A stretch of DNA of 64,000 nucleotides from Candidatus Anderseniibacteriota bacterium (GCA_046350855.1 JAXLZM010000005.1:9331-73330), one strand, 5' to 3'; shown: positions 929-34,978, counted from the first letter of the stretch. Program-made: numbers and translations. Notes: a model not told the origin generated them from the letters alone.

Positions 929-3009
929 TGCGCACGCGGGCGGTCGGAGTACCGGTTTTGTTAGCGATTTTGTTGAGCAGTTTGCTCACGCTCGGTTTGC
1001 CGTTGCGCTCCTCGGCCCAACTCGAAAAAGACAACGACAGCGATGCCTACGATCAAGAAACCTGTAACGGCGTCTCGGAGGACGAGATGGAGGCCACCAA
1101 AGATGGTGCGGTCGAAAATCCCTTTGGGCCGATCGATTTACCGGGCAGCTCCTCTCGTAACGGCGGTAACGATCCGGATGCCTTTAGTCCTTTTCCTAAT
1201 GGGAGCTTTCAGCTGCCCTTTGAATTAGACTTTGGTGGCCAACAGGGAGGTGGCGGCGGTGGAGGAGGGGGTGGCCAAGCTTTTTCGTTTGTTCCGACCT
1301 ACACCAGTGACGAGGATAAACGGGTCAACGCTTCCTTTTACCCAGAGCCACAAGTCTCGCTGCAATTGGCCGATCCGACCGCCGTCCAGGGCGAGGAGGT
1401 CACCGCGACCGTCCAATATGACAGTTTTGCCGATCAGAGTGTTCCGGGACAAAACTTTTACACGGTCGCCTTTGTGGACGGTGTGTTTCTTAACGGCCAC
1501 ATGGCGGGTGGTAGCGCAGAAGCCCTCCAAGAGCTCAGTGTCGGTGGCGGCGGAGCGCGCGGGGACTGCAGTACGGTGAGCCGCAAGACGCAGAGCGACT
1601 CCGATGGTGATGGGATGGACGACGATTGGGAGATTCGCTACGGCCTCAACCCCAACGACCCGGGGGATGCCGGACAAGATCCGGATAAGGATGGCTACCT
1701 AGCCAACAATTTTATTAATCTCGATGGCGAGGCGGTTCAGCCCGCACCTCCAATTGCCGGGGCAGAGCTCGGGGATGGCAGCTTTAGCAACTATGAGGAG
1801 TACGTCTTGGATACCGACCCGCGCAATCCGGATACGGATGGAGATGGCACGCCCGATGAGGCGGATGCGGTTGGTTTGGGTCAGAGCGTCATCAAGTTTC
1901 CGGCCACCAAAACGCTGGGAGAACCGGCCTACAACCTGCACGTCATCGTTGTGGGGCGCACCCAAAAGAAGAACGAGGACGGTGACACGTTGATCAAGAT
2001 TGATTCGGCCACGCGCCAAGTCCAGACCGGCACGCGCGAGAACCTCCAAGTGCAATTGCAGTTACTCTCGGCTGCCGCCCCTGGCCAGACTTTGGTCGTG
2101 ACCTCTGAGCCCACCGGCACCGATCAGCGTGATTTACTCAATACCTACCGCTGGTCGATCGCTGGGCAACTCAACACCCAATCCAGCGGCCAAGGTCGTC
2201 GGACCCTCGAGTACCCTATCGATCGGGGAGTAGCAGTCGGCACCAAACTCCCTATTACTCTCGAGCTGATTAACAGCAAGACTGGGCAACTTGCTAAGGG
2301 TGCTCTCGATGTAGTGGTCGGCGACACGGTCTTGCTCAACTACGATCCGCTTACGGTCGAACAAAACGGTACAGCTCAAATCCAAGCACTGCTAACCGCC
2401 GAGCAACCGCGCGACGATTTTTTGTTCAACTGGACGGTTAACGATCAGCTCGTGCCAACCGCCTCGCGAGTAGGCGCTGATACGTTTGATTTGCCCATAG
2501 CTGGTCGGGGTGGCCAAGAACAAACGGTCAGCGTGACGGTCTATCGCACCTCTGACAGTGCCTTGATCGGCCAGAGTATGACCACACTCACCGTGCTTGA
2601 ACCAAGCGTGCAACTGGTGCTTACACCCGAGCAGCCCCGTAGCGGCGATCACCCGGTCTTGGAGATCACGGCCCAACATTTTGGCTCTAATACGCTCCAG
2701 TACTCCGCAACCGTAGATGGCAAAAAGCTCGAGACGACCGGCCCCTTAGTCAGCTTGCCCGCGGTCACCCAAGGAGAACACCATTTGGCGGTGACCGTGC
2801 GTTCGACCGAGACACCCGCCAGCGTCGCTAACGCGGAGCTTGTCTTTAACGTCACCGGTGCAGTCGTGATTAGCGCCCGTTCACGTACACCCAACGTGCA
2901 AGCGAGCTTGGTCAGCACTCCAGTTTTGGGAGCTGCCTCAGCCATCGCAGTGGGAGTCATTATGCTGGTCTTGGTCTATAGCAACCGCACTAAAGCCCAT
3001 CCCGCATGA
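928..3009 (+). CDS. Tail-anchored secreted/surface protein with thrombospondin type-3-like Ca-binding repeats, paralog 1 of 3
   Basis: Has an N-terminal signal peptide, a CNGVSEDE motif, a Gly-rich tract, DSDGDGMDDDWEIRYGLNPNDPGDAGQDPDKDGY and DTDPRNPDTDGDGTPDE (DxDxDG-type repeats), and a C-terminal TM helix. Start overlaps the upstream stop; ATGA coupling to the next gene. Confidence 0.7.
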   Translation: MRTRAVGVPVLLAILLSSLLTLGLPLRSSAQLEKDNDSDAYDQETCNGVSEDEMEATKDGAVENPFGPIDLPGSSSRNGGNDPDAFSPFPNGSFQLPFELDFGGQQGGGGGGGGGGQAFSFVPTYTSDEDKRVNASFYPEPQVSLQLADPTAVQGEEVTATVQYDSFADQSVPGQNFYTVAFVDGVFLNGHMAGGSAEALQELSVGGGGARGDCSTVSRKTQSDSDGDGMDDDWEIRYGLNPNDPGDAGQDPDKDGYLANNFINLDGEAVQPAPPIAGAELGDGSFSNYEEYVLDTDPRNPDTDGDGTPDEADAVGLGQSVIKFPATKTLGEPAYNLHVIVVGRTQKKNEDGDTLIKIDSATRQVQTGTRENLQVQLQLLSAAAPGQTLVVTSEPTGTDQRDLLNTYRWSIAGQLNTQSSGQGRRTLEYPIDRGVAVGTKLPITLELINSKTGQLAKGALDVVVGDTVLLNYDPLTVEQNGTAQIQALLTAEQPRDDFLFNWTVNDQLVPTASRVGADTFDLPIAGRGGQEQTVSVTVYRTSDSALIGQSMTTLTVLEPSVQLVLTPEQPRSGDHPVLEITAQHFGSNTLQYSATVDGKKLETTGPLVSLPAVTQGEHHLAVTVRSTETPASVANAELVFNVTGAVVISARSRTPNVQASLVSTPVLGAASAIAVGVIMLVLVYSNRTKAHPA

Positions 3010-5036
3010 GTAAGCGTCTGACACAGTTTGCCGTCTTGCTGATCGTCCTCACCCTGGCGCTCGGAGTACCGCGTCTCTCGCGTGCGACCGACCAGGATGA
3101 TTTGAGCGACGCACACGGTCAGGGTCCCTATGATGAGGTCTCCTGTAACGGTGCCAGTGAGGATGAACTCGACACGGGGGACCCGGCCGAGGATTTCTTT
3201 CCGCCTTTTCAGTTTGATACCAATGAACAGCACAACGACGGAGGTGGTTCGTTTACGGGGCAATACACCTTTCCGTTTAGCGACCAAGAAGTCTTTCAGT
3301 TGTTCAATCGGCGCTCCGAGCAGGCCACCGAGCCGCACGTCAATGTCACGATCGCACCTACCGAGGTCGAACCCGGCCAACCCGTCAGTCTGATCGCAAG
3401 CCTGGCCGACTTTAAAGACAACGGCAGCGCGCAAAACCTACAGTACGCAGTGGGGTTCTCGGTCGATGAGATCAGTCTGCAGGGCATTATGGCCGGTGGT
3501 AAAAAATTGCCGGAGAGTCCGACCGGCTCAAGCTGTGGACTGGTGACCCGTACACCCCAGGTGGATGGCGATGGCGACGGCATGGATGACAACTGGGAGG
3601 CCGCACACGGCCTCAATCCGACCGACCCGAGTGATGCCTTTGCGGACCCTGACAACGACTCGGCTGCGCAGTTTTATACCAACGGGGATGACGAGGAGCT
3701 CCAGGTTACGCCCGAGACGGCCGGTGGCCCAACCGGCGTCATGAACAACCTGGCCGAATTTACCTTTGACACTGACCCTAATCGGGCCGATACGGATGGC
3801 GACAGCATTACCGACGGTATGGAGATTATCGGGTTTGGTGGGCCGGCCGTTACCTTTAGTATCGAGCGACCGGTTGGTTCTGCCGTACAGGTACGCGCCT
3901 TTGCGGTGGGGGTCTCGGCCAAGCAAGATGCCGAGCAAGAGTTTAAAAATATCGTCAAACTCGATTCTTCGACCCGCACCTTTTTTATCAGCAATGGGGA
4001 GCACCTCAAGGGCCAGACTAAGACCCTCGAAGCCTTTACCGCGCCGGGCCAGACCGCTGTGATCGAGGCCCAGTTTGTCGGTTCCGAGGCCGAGCCTGAC
4101 TCCTTTGCCTATAGCTACGAGGTAGACGGTCAAGAGATCACTAATCCATCGCCCGCGCGCCATCGTTTGGAGGTTGCGGTCGATCCGACTCGGACACCCG
4201 GCACGACCATTCCGTATCAGATCGAAGCGGTCAACCCGGCTACCGGACAACTCGCGACCATGCGGGGGGTGATCCAGGTAGGGGAGCACCTGACCCTTGA
4301 GACCGATCCGGTCGAACCCGTCGCAGGTGGGCCGGTCACGGTGCGGGCGGTGTTGGCCTCGGGCCAAGATCCATTGCACTACTTGTACGAGTGGTCGCTC
4401 AACGATCAATTGGATGAACAAGCCTCTGGTATTGGCCGTAACGCGATCGAATTGACCGCTCCGGCGGCAAGTGGTGACGCGGTCACGGTGAACCTACGTT
4501 TGTTTTTAGTCGACACCAGTCAGCTGGTGGGGCAGGCGGCGTTGGATCTAGCGGCCAGTACACCGAGCGTAGCGCTCGAGGTGATCCCCGAGTCTCCCAA
4601 GCCTGGCGAGACCGTCACGGTCTTTGCACGGCCTAAGAATTTTCCGGTCAACTTTGATAGTGACGGCAACGGTGACAACGATGCGACACTACTTCGCTAT
4701 AGCTGGAGTGTGGATGGGAGCGAGCAACCCGTGCAGGAGAGCGCGGCGGGGTTCTCGAGCATCACTCTACCGGCGGGTGACCTCAATCAACAGCACAGTC
4801 TGAGTGTCCAGGTGCGCTCTGTCGGGGCTCACAGTGAGACGGCCGGAGCCGAGGCGAGCTTTACGACCGGGGTGGGCGTGACCGCTATCTCCGCACGGGC
4901 CCGAGCTGCGGGAGAAACTCTCTTGGCCTCGCTGGGTTCGGCCTTTCCACGCTACGGTGCGGCGGTGATTGCAGCCCTTGGTGTTGTCTCGCTACTCGGT
5001 TTGGCCTACTGGGGTCGCACACGGAGGACCGCATGA
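3006..5036 (+). CDS. Tail-anchored secreted/surface protein with TSP3-like repeats, paralog 2 of 3
   Basis: Has a signal peptide and the shared motifs CNGASEDELD, FFPPFQFD, VDGDGDGMDDNWEAAHGLNPTDPSDA and DTDPNRADTDGDSITDG, plus a C-terminal TM helix and basic tail. ATGA overlaps at both ends. Confidence 0.7.
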   Translation: MSKRLTQFAVLLIVLTLALGVPRLSRATDQDDLSDAHGQGPYDEVSCNGASEDELDTGDPAEDFFPPFQFDTNEQHNDGGGSFTGQYTFPFSDQEVFQLFNRRSEQATEPHVNVTIAPTEVEPGQPVSLIASLADFKDNGSAQNLQYAVGFSVDEISLQGIMAGGKKLPESPTGSSCGLVTRTPQVDGDGDGMDDNWEAAHGLNPTDPSDAFADPDNDSAAQFYTNGDDEELQVTPETAGGPTGVMNNLAEFTFDTDPNRADTDGDSITDGMEIIGFGGPAVTFSIERPVGSAVQVRAFAVGVSAKQDAEQEFKNIVKLDSSTRTFFISNGEHLKGQTKTLEAFTAPGQTAVIEAQFVGSEAEPDSFAYSYEVDGQEITNPSPARHRLEVAVDPTRTPGTTIPYQIEAVNPATGQLATMRGVIQVGEHLTLETDPVEPVAGGPVTVRAVLASGQDPLHYLYEWSLNDQLDEQASGIGRNAIELTAPAASGDAVTVNLRLFLVDTSQLVGQAALDLAASTPSVALEVIPESPKPGETVTVFARPKNFPVNFDSDGNGDNDATLLRYSWSVDGSEQPVQESAAGFSSITLPAGDLNQQHSLSVQVRSVGAHSETAGAEASFTTGVGVTAISARARAAGETLLASLGSAFPRYGAAVIAALGVVSLLGLAYWGRTRRTA

Positions 5037-29683: not shown

Positions 29684-30124
29684 ATGTCTGGGTATCCAAC
29701 CAACCTCGTGCGTCACGCACACTTTGCTTCCGTGGCAGGCTATTTAACGGAGGACAACTTTCCGGTGGTTCTGCCACTGGAAGAACATCCCGACTACCGT
29801 CTCATCAACCCGGGCGCCGTGTCTACTGCCGCGATCTTGGAGCAGATGCAGGCAGAACGGCAACGCGCGCCTTCGCTGTACGAGCTGATCACCTGGGCCG
29901 TCGAGCATCCCGAGGCTGGACTCAAGCAGTGGGTGATCGCTTTGGGTCAGTCTATCCCTGGCGAAAATAAGAATCGCGGCTACCCGTGCGCGCGACCCGA
30001 TCGGCGCGGCATGCGTGATCTGGCCTGCGCGTGGGAGCGTCCCATTGGCCGACCGTGGGGCGCGGAGGATCTGTTCTTGGTTGTGCAGGAGCCGCCTCCC
30101 GGATTCAAACTCACCTTTGCGTGA
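29684..30124 (+). CDS. Paralog of the DGR target protein (no TR-matching VR)
   Basis: RAPSLYELITWAVEHPEAGLKQWVIALGQS aligns with the target's RPATLYELLVWAAKNPLEGTQYWVVALEQY. Its C-terminal region has no DNA match to the TR. Confidence 0.55.
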   Translation: MSGYPTNLVRHAHFASVAGYLTEDNFPVVLPLEEHPDYRLINPGAVSTAAILEQMQAERQRAPSLYELITWAVEHPEAGLKQWVIALGQSIPGENKNRGYPCARPDRRGMRDLACAWERPIGRPWGAEDLFLVVQEPPPGFKLTFA

Positions 30125-30299
30125 GAGTTGTAGTGCTACTAGTGGGCTCGATCTCTGATCGAGCCCCTCTTTTTGTGCAAGTTGACAAAAGAGCCTTTTT
30201 AGTGTAAGGTGTGTGTTTGCTCTTTAACTGGTACGTCTAGAACCCGTGGCATGGTGCTGTGGGTTGTCGGACAAGCCAAGTACCAAGGAGAACACTCAA

Positions 30300-30971
30300 A
30301 TGGCAAAGGCCAAGACCGCAAAGAAGAAGTCGGAGACGGCTTCTGCGATCGGTGTGTACGCCAAGATCTGGATCGCGATCGAGGCAGCCGTGCTCGCCAA
30401 GGGCGGCACGTACAACGACCTTTACTCGCTCAGCGAGACCAAGGACGCCACCCTGATCAACAAGTTCGCGGAACTCGTGGTCACCTCCAAGAATGGCGCC
30501 AAGAAGGTTGCCGATAAGGTCGTCGACGTGATGGCCGGTTACCTCCAGCGCCTGACCGTTGCCTGCAACTTCTCGTACGTGTGGGACGGCATCACGGAGG
30601 CTCGCTTCCCGATGCCGACCAAGCCCGTGAGTGAGAAGCTCGAGTACGTGGTCTACTCCATCAAGCAGGCCATGAACCGCGCTGAAATCATCGCTGCCAT
30701 GGCTGCCGAGGGACTGCGGCCCGCCACCCTGTACGAACTGCTGGTCTGGGCTGCCAAGAACCCGCTCGAAGGCACTCAGTACTGGGTGGTTGCTCTTGAG
30801 CAGTACTTCACGGATTCCGGCGGCAGCCTCGACTTCGCCTACATCAACCCCTATGGCTACGGCAGGCGCGAGCTCGACTACGGCTGGATCAACCGCCTCA
30901 GCGATCGGTGGAGCGCCGACGGTCGTTTTCTCGCCGTCCGCAAGTCGAGCGACGAGCCCTTGGCCACTTAG
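30300..30971 (+). CDS. DGR target (variable) protein with C-terminal VR
   Basis: AAGGAG 8 nt upstream of the ATG at 30300. The C-terminal 144 nt equal the TR except at TR adenines. Confidence 0.8.
   Translation: MAKAKTAKKKSETASAIGVYAKIWIAIEAAVLAKGGTYNDLYSLSETKDATLINKFAELVVTSKNGAKKVADKVVDVMAGYLQRLTVACNFSYVWDGITEARFPMPTKPVSEKLEYVVYSIKQAMNRAEIIAAMAAEGLRPATLYELLVWAAKNPLEGTQYWVVALEQYFTDSGGSLDFAYINPYGYGRRELDYGWINRLSDRWSADGRFLAVRKSSDEPLAT
30804..30947 (+). repeat. DGR variable repeat (VR)
   Basis: 144-nt match to 31278..31421 with 21 differences, every one at a TR adenine. Confidence 0.85.
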
Positions 30972-31277
30972 TTCCTTGGAACTCATAGAGACCACCTGGT
31001 CTCTTGGTTCCCGCCCTCGGAAGACACATGTCTTCCGAGGGTATTTTTTATCTGCTACTATTTTTTGGGATCGCGACTAGTCAGGCTACAGCTTGACCAA
31101 TCAAAATCTCGGTTCATTCTAGGCCAGGATCCCGTCGGTCAAGACTTACGGGAGCGTGCTTGCAGTGAGCCAAATAAAACATGACTTGGTGTAGTTAGTT
31201 GGAGAGCTTGCAGCTCCAAACATAGATTCAGTCGGGAGATATTCAACCGACGGTGACACGGATGGCTTTCTACACAC

Positions 31278-31421
31278 AACTTCACGGATTCCGACGGCAA
31301 CCTCAACTTCGCCTACATCAACCCCAATGGCAACGGCAGGCGCAAGCTCAACTACAACTGGATCAACCACCTCAGCAATCAGTGGAACACCGACAATCGT
31401 TTTCTCGCCGTCCGCAAGAAA
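31278..31421 (+). repeat. DGR template repeat (TR)
   Basis: Invariant A-rich copy (AAC codons) of the VR. Lies between the target gene and avd/RT. Confidence 0.85.
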
Positions 31422-31432
31422 TGTTTTATCTA

Positions 31433-31852
31433 CTATGAGGGCCCGTAACCAAACGTTGCGGGCTTTTTAGTAGCCGATTTTTGCCATCCGCCCAGCATGC
31501 GTCCTACTTCAGCAAGCGGCGTACTGATATGTGCATATTTTTTGTGATCAATCAATTTGAGTTCCCACGCAATTTGTAAAAAGAATTTGAGTGTATCAAG
31601 TGTGCTGCTTGCTGCGCGTATAAGGTCTGCTTTACGCTTTGGGCTGGCAAAACAGGCCTGCAATAATCGAGTAATTAAATCTAAAAAAAGAGTCTCGATC
31701 CGTCCGCCAATTCCTTGGTGTGCTAGCCGTGGTAAGTTTGGCAGCGTTCCATACCAGGTTTTATATGCTAATGATGCACGTTGTAGAATTGGCGCATCTG
31801 GAGATGGCTGGGGGGGGGTATTCCAAGCACTATGAAACGGTTGCTGAACCAT
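31433..31852 (-). CDS. avd: Avd-like accessory variability determinant (four-helix-bundle protein)
   Basis: ASSTLDTLKFFLQIAWELKLIDHKKYAHISTPLAEVGRMLGGWQKS matches the four-helix-bundle / 23S-rRNA-IVS protein family used as DGR Avd. It is on the opposite strand to the TR and RT. Confidence 0.6.
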   Translation of the reverse strand: MVQQPFHSAWNTPPQPSPDAPILQRASLAYKTWYGTLPNLPRLAHQGIGGRIETLFLDLITRLLQACFASPKRKADLIRAASSTLDTLKFFLQIAWELKLIDHKKYAHISTPLAEVGRMLGGWQKSATKKPATFGYGPS

Positions 31853-32830
31853 ACGTTTGAGCAGGCTATATCACTTGAGAATTTACTGCTAGCTTGGCAG
31901 GAGTTTGCTACTGAAAAGCGTTATAAGCTGGACGTGGCCCATTTTAGTTTGAGGTTATTTGAAAATGTTCAGCAGTTGCAAAAGGAGCTTGAGGATGCCT
32001 CGTATCAGCACGGTGGGTATTATCGGTTCCGAGTGTGCGATCCAAAACCACGTGTAATTCATAAAGCAACTGTGCGCGATCGACTGTTACATCACGCATT
32101 GTATCGCGTGCTCTATCCATTTTTTGAGGATACGTTTTGCAGCGACGTGTTTTCTTCTCTCAAAAATAGGGGCGCTCATGCGGCACTCTCTCGTTTTGCG
32201 CATTTATACAATAGGGTAAGTCATAATAGTACGCGGACTTGCTGGGTCCTAAAATGCGATATCGCAAAGTTTTTTGACACAATTGATCACGAGATTCTTA
32301 AAAAACTACTCGAGGCTAGAGTCGAGGACAAAAAGCTACGTGTGCTCTTAAGCACGGTTATTGATAGTTTTTCGGTCCTACCTGGTAAAGGTCTACCGCT
32401 CGGCAACTTAACTTCACAATTGTTCTGCAATATTTATTTAAGTCACTTCGACAACTTTGTTAAACATTCGGTGCGTGCAAAGACCTATATTCGTTACGCA
32501 GACGATTTTGTAGTTATGTCGGATCGACGTGATTTTTTAGAGACACTTATTCCAAAGTTTGCAGATTTTCTGCAAAAAGAACTTAGACTCTCGCTGCATC
32601 CGCGCAAAGTGTCAATCAGCACAGTCGCATCAGGTGTCGACTTTTTGGGGTGGGTGCATTTTCCACATCACCGAGTCTTAAGGACCAAGACAAAAAATCG
32701 TCTACTGCGTCATGTCGCGATCTCTCCTCATACACCAACGATTGCATCATATCGAGGCTTACTAAAGCATGGTCATGCTAGACGCATTGAGCAAAAGCTT
32801 GCCTCGATTGAACTCTTTGGCAGGCTGTAA
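31832..32830 (+). CDS. DGR reverse transcriptase
   Basis: RT motifs VLKCDIAKFFDTIDH, LPLGNLTSQLFCNIYL (the DGR-specific SQ..N motif), YIRYADDFVV (YxDD) and GVDFLGW. Confidence 0.9.
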   Translation: MKRLLNHTFEQAISLENLLLAWQEFATEKRYKLDVAHFSLRLFENVQQLQKELEDASYQHGGYYRFRVCDPKPRVIHKATVRDRLLHHALYRVLYPFFEDTFCSDVFSSLKNRGAHAALSRFAHLYNRVSHNSTRTCWVLKCDIAKFFDTIDHEILKKLLEARVEDKKLRVLLSTVIDSFSVLPGKGLPLGNLTSQLFCNIYLSHFDNFVKHSVRAKTYIRYADDFVVMSDRRDFLETLIPKFADFLQKELRLSLHPRKVSISTVASGVDFLGWVHFPHHRVLRTKTKNRLLRHVAISPHTPTIASYRGLLKHGHARRIEQKLASIELFGRL

Positions 32831-32869
32831 AAAACAATTGAAAAAACCGCTCAAAACGGCTAGCATCGG

Positions 32870-34978
32870 TTGGTTATGAGCCGTGTGGTTCTGCCAAAAA
32901 ATCAGGCTAAAACGCGGGTTACAAAGCTGCATGAACTGATCAACAAAGAGCGCTACAACGTGCACGTGCTCGATCGCTCGACCATGTCCGAGGCGGCCCT
33001 CGACTCGCTTAAAAAAGAGCTGTTTAATTTGGAGCAGGCCTATCCGGATCTCGTGACGCCCGACTCGCCGACCCAGCGCGTGGCGGGTAAACCCTTGCCA
33101 GCGTTTACTAAGGTTCGGCAGCCGGTGCGGATACTCTCACTCAACGACGCGTTTAGTTTAGAGGATCTGCAGGAGTGGGAGACCCGTCTTAAAAAGGTAG
33201 AACCGCGCGGAGACTACTCGTATTTTTGTGAACTCAAAATCGACGGGCTCGACATCGTGCTCAAGTACGAGGACGGCATGTTTGTGCAGGGTGCCACGCG
33301 CGGGGATGGACAAGTGGGAGAGGATGTCACCCAAAACTTACGAACCATCGATGCGATTCCGCTGCGACTTGATGTAGAAGCCTTCGAGAAAAAGTTCAAA
33401 CGTAAGTTACCGCGTACAGTCTACGTGCAAGGTGAGATTTATTTGCCGATCAAAGAGTTTGAACGCATCAACGCGGAGCAAAAAGCCAAGGGCGGTACGC
33501 TCTATGCCAACCCGCGCAACACCGCCGCGGGGTCGATTCGGCAACTGGATGCCAAATTGGTGGCTGACCGTCGACTCTCTATTTTTATTTTCAATATTTT
33601 GACGGACTTGGGTCAGCGTACGCACGAGGAGCTGCACGAGATGGCGTTTACCCTGGGTTTGCCGGTGGAACCGCACAGCAAACTGTTTAAATCGATCGAG
33701 GCGGTGGATGCGTATCTCAAAGAGTGGGACAAAAAGCGCAAGGGCTTGCGCTACCAAACGGATGGGGCGGTGGTGCAAGTAAATGATGCGCGTTTGTTTG
33801 CCACACTGGGCGTGGTTGGTAAGGCGCCACGTGGCGCTATGGCCTACAAATTTGCTGCAGAAGAAGCGACCACAAAAGTGCGCGAGATTATGATCTCTGT
33901 TGGTCGTACCGGTGCCCTCACCCCGATCGCGGTCATGGATCCGGTGCTCGTGGCAGGTACGACGGTCTCGCGCGCCTCGATGCACAACGAGGACGAAGTG
34001 CGCCGCCTCGACGTGCGGGTCGGTGACACGGTCATCATCCGTAAAGCGGGGGATATTATTCCGGAAGTGGTGCGCGTGCTCAAAGAGTTGCGACCGGCCA
34101 ACGTCAAAGGTGACAAAAAACAATTTACGATGCCCAAGACCTGTCCAATGTGCGGGGGCAAGGTGGTCAGGCGTACGGGCGAGGCGGCGCACTACTGCGC
34201 CAATCCAAAATGCTTTGCGATCGACCGTGAGCGCGTGATCCATATGATTTACGCCTTTGATATTTATTTTGTCGGGCCCAAGCTGATCGACAAATTGTTT
34301 GATGCAGAACTGATCCGCGATGCCGGCGACATCTTTAGCCTCAAAGTGGGTGATTATGAAGGCTTGCCAAACTTTGGCGAAGTATCCGCGCGCCGTGCGT
34401 ATGACGCAGTCGCCGCAAAAAAGAAAATCGAACTCGCTCGCTTGCTCTGGGGGCTCGGTATCAGACACGTGGGCGGGGAGACCGCGACCGACCTAGCTCG
34501 TCTGATCGTTGCGATGTGGCACAAGCGCGCAAACGGTAAAACCAAAAGCGGTTCTGCCGGACCAATGCTCTCCGACCTGATCGACTTTTTGCCTTCGGTC
34601 ACGCTCGAGGGCTGGATGAACACCGAAGGCATCGGCGATGTGGTCGCCAAAAGCTTGCAGGCGTATTTTGCCAACAAAGAGAATCTCAAATTCCTCAAAA
34701 AACTGCAGGCGGCGGGGGTTGCGATTGTTCTGCCAAAGCGTCAAAAAACAAAGCTGGCGGGCAAGACCTTTGTACTGACCGGTACGCTCGAAAAATTCTC
34801 GCGCGAGGTGGCCAAGCAAAAGATCGAAGACTTGGGCGGCTCGGTAGCCAGCAGCGTTTCGAGCCACACGGACTATGTAGTGGTTGGGGCAGAGCCGGGT
34901 TCAAAAGCTAAAAAGGCTAAAGAATTGGGCGTCAAAACTCTCACGGAAGCGCAATTTGTTACCATGCTCGGGTCATGA
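32870..34978 (+). CDS. ligA: NAD-dependent DNA ligase
   Basis: KxDG adenylation motif (ELKIDGLDIV), Zn finger CPMCGGKVVR...C, HhH and C-terminal BRCT. 702 aa. Confidence 0.9.
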   Translation: MVMSRVVLPKNQAKTRVTKLHELINKERYNVHVLDRSTMSEAALDSLKKELFNLEQAYPDLVTPDSPTQRVAGKPLPAFTKVRQPVRILSLNDAFSLEDLQEWETRLKKVEPRGDYSYFCELKIDGLDIVLKYEDGMFVQGATRGDGQVGEDVTQNLRTIDAIPLRLDVEAFEKKFKRKLPRTVYVQGEIYLPIKEFERINAEQKAKGGTLYANPRNTAAGSIRQLDAKLVADRRLSIFIFNILTDLGQRTHEELHEMAFTLGLPVEPHSKLFKSIEAVDAYLKEWDKKRKGLRYQTDGAVVQVNDARLFATLGVVGKAPRGAMAYKFAAEEATTKVREIMISVGRTGALTPIAVMDPVLVAGTTVSRASMHNEDEVRRLDVRVGDTVIIRKAGDIIPEVVRVLKELRPANVKGDKKQFTMPKTCPMCGGKVVRRTGEAAHYCANPKCFAIDRERVIHMIYAFDIYFVGPKLIDKLFDAELIRDAGDIFSLKVGDYEGLPNFGEVSARRAYDAVAAKKKIELARLLWGLGIRHVGGETATDLARLIVAMWHKRANGKTKSGSAGPMLSDLIDFLPSVTLEGWMNTEGIGDVVAKSLQAYFANKENLKFLKKLQAAGVAIVLPKRQKTKLAGKTFVLTGTLEKFSREVAKQKIEDLGGSVASSVSSHTDYVVVGAEPGSKAKKAKELGVKTLTEAQFVTMLGS

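Follow-up and report, generated by a model that had tools for sequence, protein, structure and literature searches.

In the diversity-generating retroelement (DGR) of the Bordetella phage BPP-1, arranged as mtd-avd-TR-Sp-brt, cDNA synthesis is primed from the 2'-OH of A56 in the Sp RNA, the base that terminates a short helix formed with the template repeat (TR) at its 3' end, and two nucleotides after A56 the Sp segment 59-70 pairs with a segment just upstream of the TR, the 'cPRT Stop'. Onward, Sp comprises a small stem-loop, adenosines, a single-stranded 'thumb ring' and a stem-loop binding the reverse transcriptase (RT), and an Avd-binding stem-loop is located directly after the TR (bioRxiv 10.1101/2023.10.23.563531). 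For DGRs from bacteria of the candidate phyla radiation (CPR), the published norm is a TR-(avd)-RT layout and a target protein having neither a signal peptide nor a known domain (PMC5758913; PMC8144416). This layout, architecture B3, makes up 90% of the CPR collection (Wu et al. 2018, PMC5758913), and the DGRs of Patescibacteria have been assigned to 'clade 2' (Roux et al. 2021, PMC8144416). From a 64,000-nucleotide stretch of a Candidatus Andersenbacteria (Parcubacteria) genome (GCA_046350855.1, JAXLZM010000005.1:9331-73330; this whole stretch is referred to as the window, with positions counted from its first letter), a chromosomal, recently active DGR of the CPR-typical kind can be deduced with high confidence. 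Judged by sequence, the locus is a CPR-typical DGR of architecture B3 and probably of the Patescibacteria 'clade 2' type, sharing with the described B3 elements the gene order and strands (target with variable repeat, plus; TR, plus; avd, minus; RT, plus), the CPR host, the chromosomal location and a small target protein without signal peptide, transmembrane segment or known domain. It differs in nothing essential, the closest family of its target being tiny and the domain family large. The complete DGR proposed in a preceding sequence-only reading is confirmed by an adenine-only repeat pair, an RT resembling the Bordetella phage enzyme bRT, an Avd, variation confined to the variable repeat and a target with a predicted lectin-like fold; as a DGR, the element is an ordinary member of a well-populated known kind and less unusual than that reading implied.

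The variable repeat (VR; 30804-30947, core 30805-30944; plus strand, as for all features below except avd) constitutes the 3' end of the 223-aa open reading frame (ORF) 30300-30971, where it spans codons 169-216, and its counterpart is the TR at 31278-31421 (core 31279-31418). Position-by-position comparison of the two tracts revealed 20 mismatches, all 20 at positions where the TR has A, with the VR showing G (15), T (4) or C (1) instead. The sequence-only reading had counted 21, a number that does not stand, while its statements that divergence is adenine-only and that no mismatch occurs at other TR bases agree with the direct comparison. Four of the mismatches, one at the first base and three at the last bases (TR AAA versus VR TCG), sit at the edges of homology, and a repeat search delimits an ungapped core of 140 nt with 16 mismatches, 16 of 16 at TR adenines (chance P ~2e-9 given a core A fraction of 0.286). 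Read in the frame of the target gene, the 41 TR adenines occupy codon positions 1 (20) and 2 (21) and in no case position 3, and nine of the 47 TR codons are AAC, the codon in which the TR had previously been described as rich. A second VR was not found in the 64-kb window when both strands were scanned with TR adenines treated as wildcards, the best unrelated site having 53 non-A mismatches of 100.

A 2927-nt contig from an unrelated sequencing run (L084; Logan SRR26348421) covers window positions 30083-33009. The two assemblies show 14 differences in 2927 nt, 12 of them in the VR (30810-30922) and two in the RT gene, and the TR is identical in both. A concentration of 12 out of 14 differences within 140 of 2927 nt corresponds to a binomial P of ~1e-14. 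Eleven of the 12 VR differences are located at TR adenines and one at a TR cytosine. This latter position, a C/T difference at window 30894 (C at TR 31368), may have arisen by ordinary point mutation or, alternatively, through the RT erring on a rare occasion at a base other than adenine. The DGR has been active recently, its VR having been rewritten after a very recent common ancestor, and the variation confined to the VR that the sequence-only reading had proposed to look for in metagenomic reads is seen here between samples and not within one.

The last 21 nt of the repeat (CGTTTTCTCGCCGTCCGCAAG, 30924-30944 in the VR) are identical in TR and VR and, despite containing two adenines, unmutated in all VR variants seen (window and L084). 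The peptide encoded here, RFLAVRK, is kept in target homologues. By analogy to BPP-1 (PMC5758913), this segment might be the homing boundary, the initiation of mutagenic homing (IMH) site. As TR and VR do not differ within 30924-30944, any IMH/IMH* distinction must sit further downstream; DGRs without such a distinction inside the repeat are known (Wu et al., PMC5758913). About 40 nt 3' of the VR, a 7-bp hairpin can be read from the sequence (AGAGACC-ACCT-GGTCTCT, 30987-31004), which is conserved in the alignment with a related Parcubacteria contig (L001) and is a candidate equivalent of the hairpin/cruciform beside the IMH. Also 3' of the VR end, motifs of the YYTTGR type (CCTTGG, TCTTGG, CTTTGG) recur both in the window (30945-31010, three copies at 30958, 30974 and 31002) and in the 100 nt following the VR in related loci (L004-L083), at a mean density of 2.6 per 100 nt versus 0.41 elsewhere in these loci. 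A 10-14 fold enrichment applies to CTTGG and CCCTT in this region, and copies are preferentially spaced by 7-9 nt or by 16 nt. There is a resemblance of the motif to the conserved CUUGG beside the primer-like strand of the TR RNA described below, and the repeats may represent a target-site recognition element.

The RT is encoded at 31832-32830 (332 aa; RVT_1, E 5.8e-25) and contains the motifs LGNLTSQLFCNIYL and YADDFVV, both of which had been recognized in the sequence-only reading. By far its closest solved relative is the Bordetella phage bRT (8ub7, E 7.8e-40, residues 8-296), the next one, a group-II-like RT, following at 3e-17, and LPLGNLTSQ as well as YADD are invariant in 40 RT relatives, corresponding to the DGR-type (I/L)GxxxSQ and YxDD signatures. 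By its closest solved relative and its motifs, the enzyme groups with the DGR RTs. More than 8000 relatives were found, the top ones being 54-59% identical and those at 52-59% identity numbering in the thousands, and those with a source name are almost all from Patescibacteria/CPR. The accessory gene avd lies on the minus strand (31433-31852, 139 aa as ORF) and is recognized by the Pfam model bAvd (PF22296, 49.5 bits at a cut-off of 40), while the NCBIfam equivalog model DivGenRetAVD matches its product (E 5e-18) at 65.3 bits, below the cut-off of 80; a solved relative of Avd was not detected by phmmer against the PDB at E values up to 1. Transcribed divergently from the RT gene, avd overlaps the RT ORF start by 21 nt with its ATG. 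An Avd-like gene just downstream had thus been rightly predicted from sequence, with its minus-strand orientation having been missed. In total, 80 related genome loci were retrieved, and in nearly all of those with enough upstream DNA avd is likewise on the minus strand abutting the RT gene. With adenine bias defined as a share of 80% or more of the mismatches lying at adenines, 57 related loci were assigned a TR/VR pair, on the RT strand in all but one (L049), and the TR ends just before the avd stop.

Between target gene and TR, a sequence of signals points to a separately transcribed, structured RNA. Downstream of the target gene, a hairpin with a 13-bp stem including 8 G-C pairs, followed by ATTTTTT (31013-31049), resembles an intrinsic terminator and would end the target gene transcript. 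It is followed by an extended -10-like box (TGCTACTAT, 31053-31061), a candidate promoter for the TR RNA with an expected start near 31068. In many related loci, TGnTATAAT/TAAAAT boxes were recognized by eye in the alignment at the same place, with 7-8 nt between box and first helix; a promoter scan of the window gave no call at 31053-31061. The VR-TR intergenic stretch is unusually conserved between the window and L001 and is 251-400 nt long in all related loci but one. A conserved structured RNA domain of ~210 nt (31067-31275) was delineated here by RNAalifold, pair counts and a covariance model (R1). It begins with hairpin P1 (31078-31099, loop GGCUAnnGCUU) and the long hairpin P2 (31121-31161), continues with an A-rich strand (AUAAAACAU, 31174-31182), the nearly invariant A31184 and CUUGGUG, and closes with a 12-bp long-range stem (31189-31200 with 31264-31275), the 3' strand of which ends 2 nt before the TR and which encloses two hairpins (31202-31217 and 31231-31251). 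Conserved single-stranded joins are UUGGUG, CCAAAUAnGAUACAG and GGUG, and also in the related loci the helix ends a few nucleotides before the TR.

The consensus structure of the 3' half, established from an alignment of 50 loci over the 130 nt before the TR, is corroborated by compensatory changes in 20 of 22 pairs. In this half, 96.0% of cells are paired versus 72.1% in column shuffles and 33-52% when the partner is slid, and double-change cells amount to 302 versus 83 in the control. The 5' half consists of two covarying hairpins with 94.2% of cells paired versus 58.6%. As G.U pairs are frequent, the folded strand is the plus strand. When searching 651 kb with R1, which models the 3' half, 72 matches were obtained, exactly one per DGR locus and always on the TR strand, with about 20 of these in loci outside the model-building set; in the window there is a single match (31160-31287, 81.7 bits, E 3e-16). 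Among the loci matched is L049, the sole related locus where TR, 5' RNA domain and avd (2534-3240) are inverted relative to the RT gene. There, TR/VR mismatches are at T on the plus strand and the RNA model matches the minus strand, so the RNA module works without co-orientation with the RT gene. No Rfam family reached its threshold in the window or in 20 CPR loci. Structured RNAs associated with RTs are represented in Rfam by RT-7 and RT-10, the latter corresponding to the BPP-1 Sp region (Weinberg et al. 2017, PMC5737381). At relaxed threshold (window plus 10 loci), the first hairpin of RT-7 (RF03028) resembles window 31123-31162 (GCCAG.AUCCCG..GGUCAAG..CGGGAG.GUGCUU); with 25.8 bits versus a gathering score of 116.8 and the match being restricted to this hairpin, membership in RT-7 was rejected. 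The partial match is present only in the window and L001 and absent from eight other CPR loci at the same threshold. In Rfam and the literature searched, a description of the 5' RNA domain was not found, though an earlier one is possible.

The A-rich strand of this domain is complementary to the linker AUGUUUUAU (31421-31429), which immediately follows the TR. Pairing between these two sites recurs in most loci with differing sequences, for example AUGAAGA/UCUUCAU, ACGAAGA/UCUUCGU, CAUACGA/UCGUAUG and AAAGAAAA/UUUUCUUU. In an alignment of 54 loci, in-register pairing is seen for 87.8% of cells; exchanging partners between loci lowers this to 66.7 +/- 1.7%, with none of 2000 permutations attaining the observed value, and sliding lowers it to 49-57%. 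Double-change cells number 84 versus 7-26. The base closing the linker duplex, A31184 in the window, is A in 53 of 54 loci. A small ORF starting in the A-rich strand (ATG in AAAUGAAGA) was also considered and discarded, many loci having ACG at this place, compensated in the pairing partner. Further downstream, a terminal hairpin (GCCCGUAAC / GUUGCGGGC) with a U-run is located at 31441-31468, its G.U pairs indicating the plus strand. Of 58 loci, 56 have a hairpin followed by a T-run no more than 60 nt 3' of the TR. Resembling a plus-strand intrinsic terminator, this structure probably forms the 3' terminus of the TR RNA, and it may be the counterpart of the BPP-1 Avd-binding stem-loop (bioRxiv 10.1101/2023.10.23.563531).

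The published positions of the Sp elements were checked on the BPP-1 sequence. In the CPR RNA, the A-rich strand is followed by the conserved A and, after four further nucleotides, by a 12-nt strand whose pairing partner lies just upstream of the TR; next come a small stem-loop, AAA, an unpaired stretch and another stem-loop. Hence, both systems share the order of RNA elements, in addition to adenine-specific transfer from TR to VR, a bRT-like RT, Avd, a target of C-type-lectin fold (predicted in the present case) with C-terminal VR and a repeat with an invariant GC-rich 3' end. In contrast to BPP-1, where the target is a phage tail fibre and the structured RNA lies 3' of the TR, avd is here found downstream of the TR and encoded by the opposite strand, the TR is preceded on its 5' side by the structured RNA, and the transcript probably ends ~50 nt after the TR. 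R1 has no match in BPP-1, so the proposed relation to Sp rests on element order and not on sequence. On this analogy, the RNA of CPR (B3) DGRs can tentatively be regarded as a circular permutation of the Bordetella DGR RNA, in which A31184 would be the 2'-OH priming site and the 12-bp stem the cDNA stop, a proposal we consider a serious possibility without giving it the upper hand. If true, the permutation would explain how a DGR functions with an antisense avd at the position of Sp. A similar topology is known from the msr-msd RNA of retrons, which also has a structured RNA 5' of the template and a template 3'-end sequence pairing back to the 5' part, where this back-pairing would place a 2'-OH primer beside the template end. 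Unlike in retrons, however, the RT falls outside the retron clade, the template matches a protein-coding VR and no retron effector gene is present here.

Alternatively, the RNA at 31067-31275 might not belong to the RNA being reverse-transcribed but be a 3'-untranslated region (UTR) element of the target mRNA, a leader for TR transcription or an independent small RNA. Its position between target gene and TR fits a 3'-UTR or a leader, and the DGR RNA elements reported by Handa et al. (bioRxiv 10.1101/2023.10.23.563531) are confined to the 40 nt upstream and the 100 nt downstream of TRs. With a survey reaching only 40 nt upstream, though, the upstream partner strands and the 5' domain could not have been seen. 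Moreover, the terminator separates the target gene from the RNA domain, one helix ends 2 nt before the TR and another segment covaries with 9 nt after the TR. Each DGR also has exactly one copy of the domain, located on the TR strand also in the inverted module of L049, and the element order after the A-rich strand matches the Bordetella Sp RNA (bioRxiv 10.1101/2023.10.23.563531). A function outside the template RNA is thus regarded as unlikely, albeit still worth considering.

In the preferred reading, with the domain being part of the template RNA, the TR would be transcribed alone from a promoter just after the target terminator, giving an RNA of ~400 nt (~31068-31468) composed of the ~210-nt structured 5' domain, the 140-nt template, the 9-nt linker pairing back and the terminal hairpin with its U-tail. 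RT and Avd would bind this RNA and copy the TR to cDNA, misincorporating opposite adenines, until copying is stopped at the 12-bp stem ending 2 nt before the TR. The cDNA would then replace the VR, with the invariant GC-rich 3' end (30924-30944) serving as homing boundary, and the outcome would be a protein with a ligand-binding face variable at ~20 codons.

The genomic surroundings indicate a chromosomal location of the element. A database entry identical to the target protein is annotated as hypothetical and derives from a Candidatus Andersenbacteria metagenome-assembled genome. The flanking genes are housekeeping genes, encoding a YkuD L,D-transpeptidase upstream and an NAD-dependent DNA ligase (ligA) downstream. 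L001 shows the same order of target, TR, avd (minus strand), RT and ligA, with an RT of 66% identity and its own TR/VR pair, again adenine-only with 24 mismatches. With the order shared by L001 and the flanking genes being housekeeping, the element is chromosomal and inherited along the lineage. In another contig (L002 1-4158; ENA ERZ27256875), ykuD, a target homologue of 56% identity and ligA are kept, and an unrelated 232-aa ORF replaces TR, avd and RT, as if the DGR core had been lost or replaced and the former target retained.

Several points weigh against the overall interpretation as a recently active DGR working as outlined above. One of the 12 VR differences, that at TR cytosine 31368, requires an ordinary mutation or a non-adenine error, and activity is inferred from two assemblies, i.e., between samples, and not from variation within one sample. 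In addition, the 12-bp stem of the window contains two U.U mismatches, A31184 is unpaired, unlike in most loci, and the R1 score of 81.7 bits is among the lowest. Assignments of the IMH, of the promoter, of both RNA ends and of the priming site are putative and made solely by analogy. Evidently, the DGR element is active despite the stem mismatches and the unpaired A31184 of the window. A fossil DGR, with its parts still recognizable, transfer having ceased and the TR/VR differences being old, would be in line with the L002 contig, as target retention between ykuD and ligA in the absence of TR, avd and RT demonstrates that core loss occurs in this lineage. However, the RT and avd ORFs of the window are intact and the catalytic motifs present, and the comparison with L084, with an identical TR, only two differences outside the VR and 11 of the 12 inside it at TR adenines, is hardly reconcilable with ceased transfer, which makes a dead element very improbable. 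That the locus is not a DGR at all but encodes a retron, group II intron or defense RT beside a 140-nt repeat arisen by ordinary duplication or gene conversion can practically be dismissed, as, although relatives are annotated as 'retron-type' or 'group II intron reverse transcriptase/maturase' and the best NCBIfam model is group_II_RT_mat, the latter scores only 139.1 bits versus a cut-off of 300, the retron St85 RT model 51.9 versus 235 and the models for defense-associated RTs (DRT) far below theirs, no intron or retron RNA family is found in the window by Rfam, bRT is the closest solved RT, avd is adjacent and all 16 core mismatches are at adenines. The sequence-only reading had named an RT lacking YxDD, or one grouping with group II intron or retron RTs, as evidence to the contrary; YADD is present and the respective models remain below cut-off.

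The target gene (30300-30971, 223 aa) encodes an N-terminal half that is helical in a low-confidence model, and a C-terminal domain (residues ~78-220) carrying the VR, with a high-confidence predicted structure for which all matches are C-type-lectin-like. The VR is thus predicted to be displayed on a C-type-lectin-like fold, as had been anticipated for the C-terminus in the sequence-only reading. Its impression of a cytoplasmic protein likewise fits, and as this agrees with the published norm for CPR DGR targets, it is an already known trait; the target is a cellular protein and not a phage tail fibre. Pfam and NCBIfam do not recognize the target, and word-indexed homologue searches returned only 4-8 proteins, with the closest family comprising four proteins at 56% identity or higher. 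An exhaustive profile search, in contrast, retrieved 4891 cluster representatives sharing the target domain, 2324 of them at E <= 1e-10, so the true family size only becomes visible by this kind of search. Most of the 4891 representatives are 140-220 aa long with the domain at the C-terminus, some having two or three copies, and ten representatives of the family gave no meaningful Pfam match. Upstream of the target gene, a further ORF (29684-30124, 146 aa; hypothetical protein U0517_03990) encodes a paralogue of the C-terminal domain, with 31% identity to target residues 78-217 over 140 aa (BLASTP, E 2e-19). As the TR wildcard scan gave no match in 29684-30124, this paralogue is not diversified by the present TR; it may represent a copy of greater age that has meanwhile become fixed. 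The L001 genome encodes a comparable short paralogue (P0126) on a separate contig.

Further observations relate to the region shared by avd and the RT start. Between the avd domain and the RT start, a G9 homopolymer tract is located at 31810-31818, corresponding to a C-run within avd codons 12-14. Runs of at least six G (7-15, mode 9-10) precede the RT start by 8-60 nt, mostly 15-35 nt, in most related loci (~67 of 74); the tract is G9 in the window and G10 in L001, and of the same length in window and L084. On the opposite strand, it forms a C-run at or just before the avd start. In many loci, avd probably starts with a TTG for the conserved Leu of LPIIQK, downstream of the C-run, whereas the ATG of the window is upstream of it, placing the run inside the ORF. 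An in-frame poly-proline reading of the C-run was considered as coding evidence and found to be uninformative, as a C-run gives proline in every frame. The G tract could be a slippage-prone on/off switch or a translation signal. At its other end, the avd ORF in the window and L001 continues for 14 codons beyond the conserved C-terminal MLGGW, through the terminal hairpin of the TR RNA (31433-31475), so both strands share this sequence there; in most other loci, the hairpin is apparently beyond the conserved Avd coding end. The G+C content is 0.39-0.47 across avd and RT (31400-32800) versus 0.55-0.62 in the target gene and the flanks, which suggests a foreign origin of the DGR core or a different constraint. 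In a related Saccharibacteria contig (L068 5360-5612), a group I catalytic intron (Rfam, 72.6 bits) is located ~3 kb downstream of the DGR, unrelated to the element described here.

As CPR genomes hold thousands of DGRs and both the layout and the kind of target have been published, the finding of this DGR itself adds little. To our knowledge, no CPR DGR has been studied experimentally. The worth of the locus lies in the evidence for recent activity, in a large, unannotated C-type-lectin-like family and in a conserved, apparently permuted template RNA domain. With two assemblies being near-identical apart from the VR, it represents a clean natural case of recent activity. The 5' RNA domain pairing with both TR flanks provides a concrete, testable model of cDNA priming and stop in DGRs with an antisense avd downstream of the TR. 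Finally, a target family of ~4,900 clusters lacking a Pfam model, with a predicted compact C-type-lectin-like fold and members that are apparently not secreted, bears on the question of what CPR bacteria diversify.

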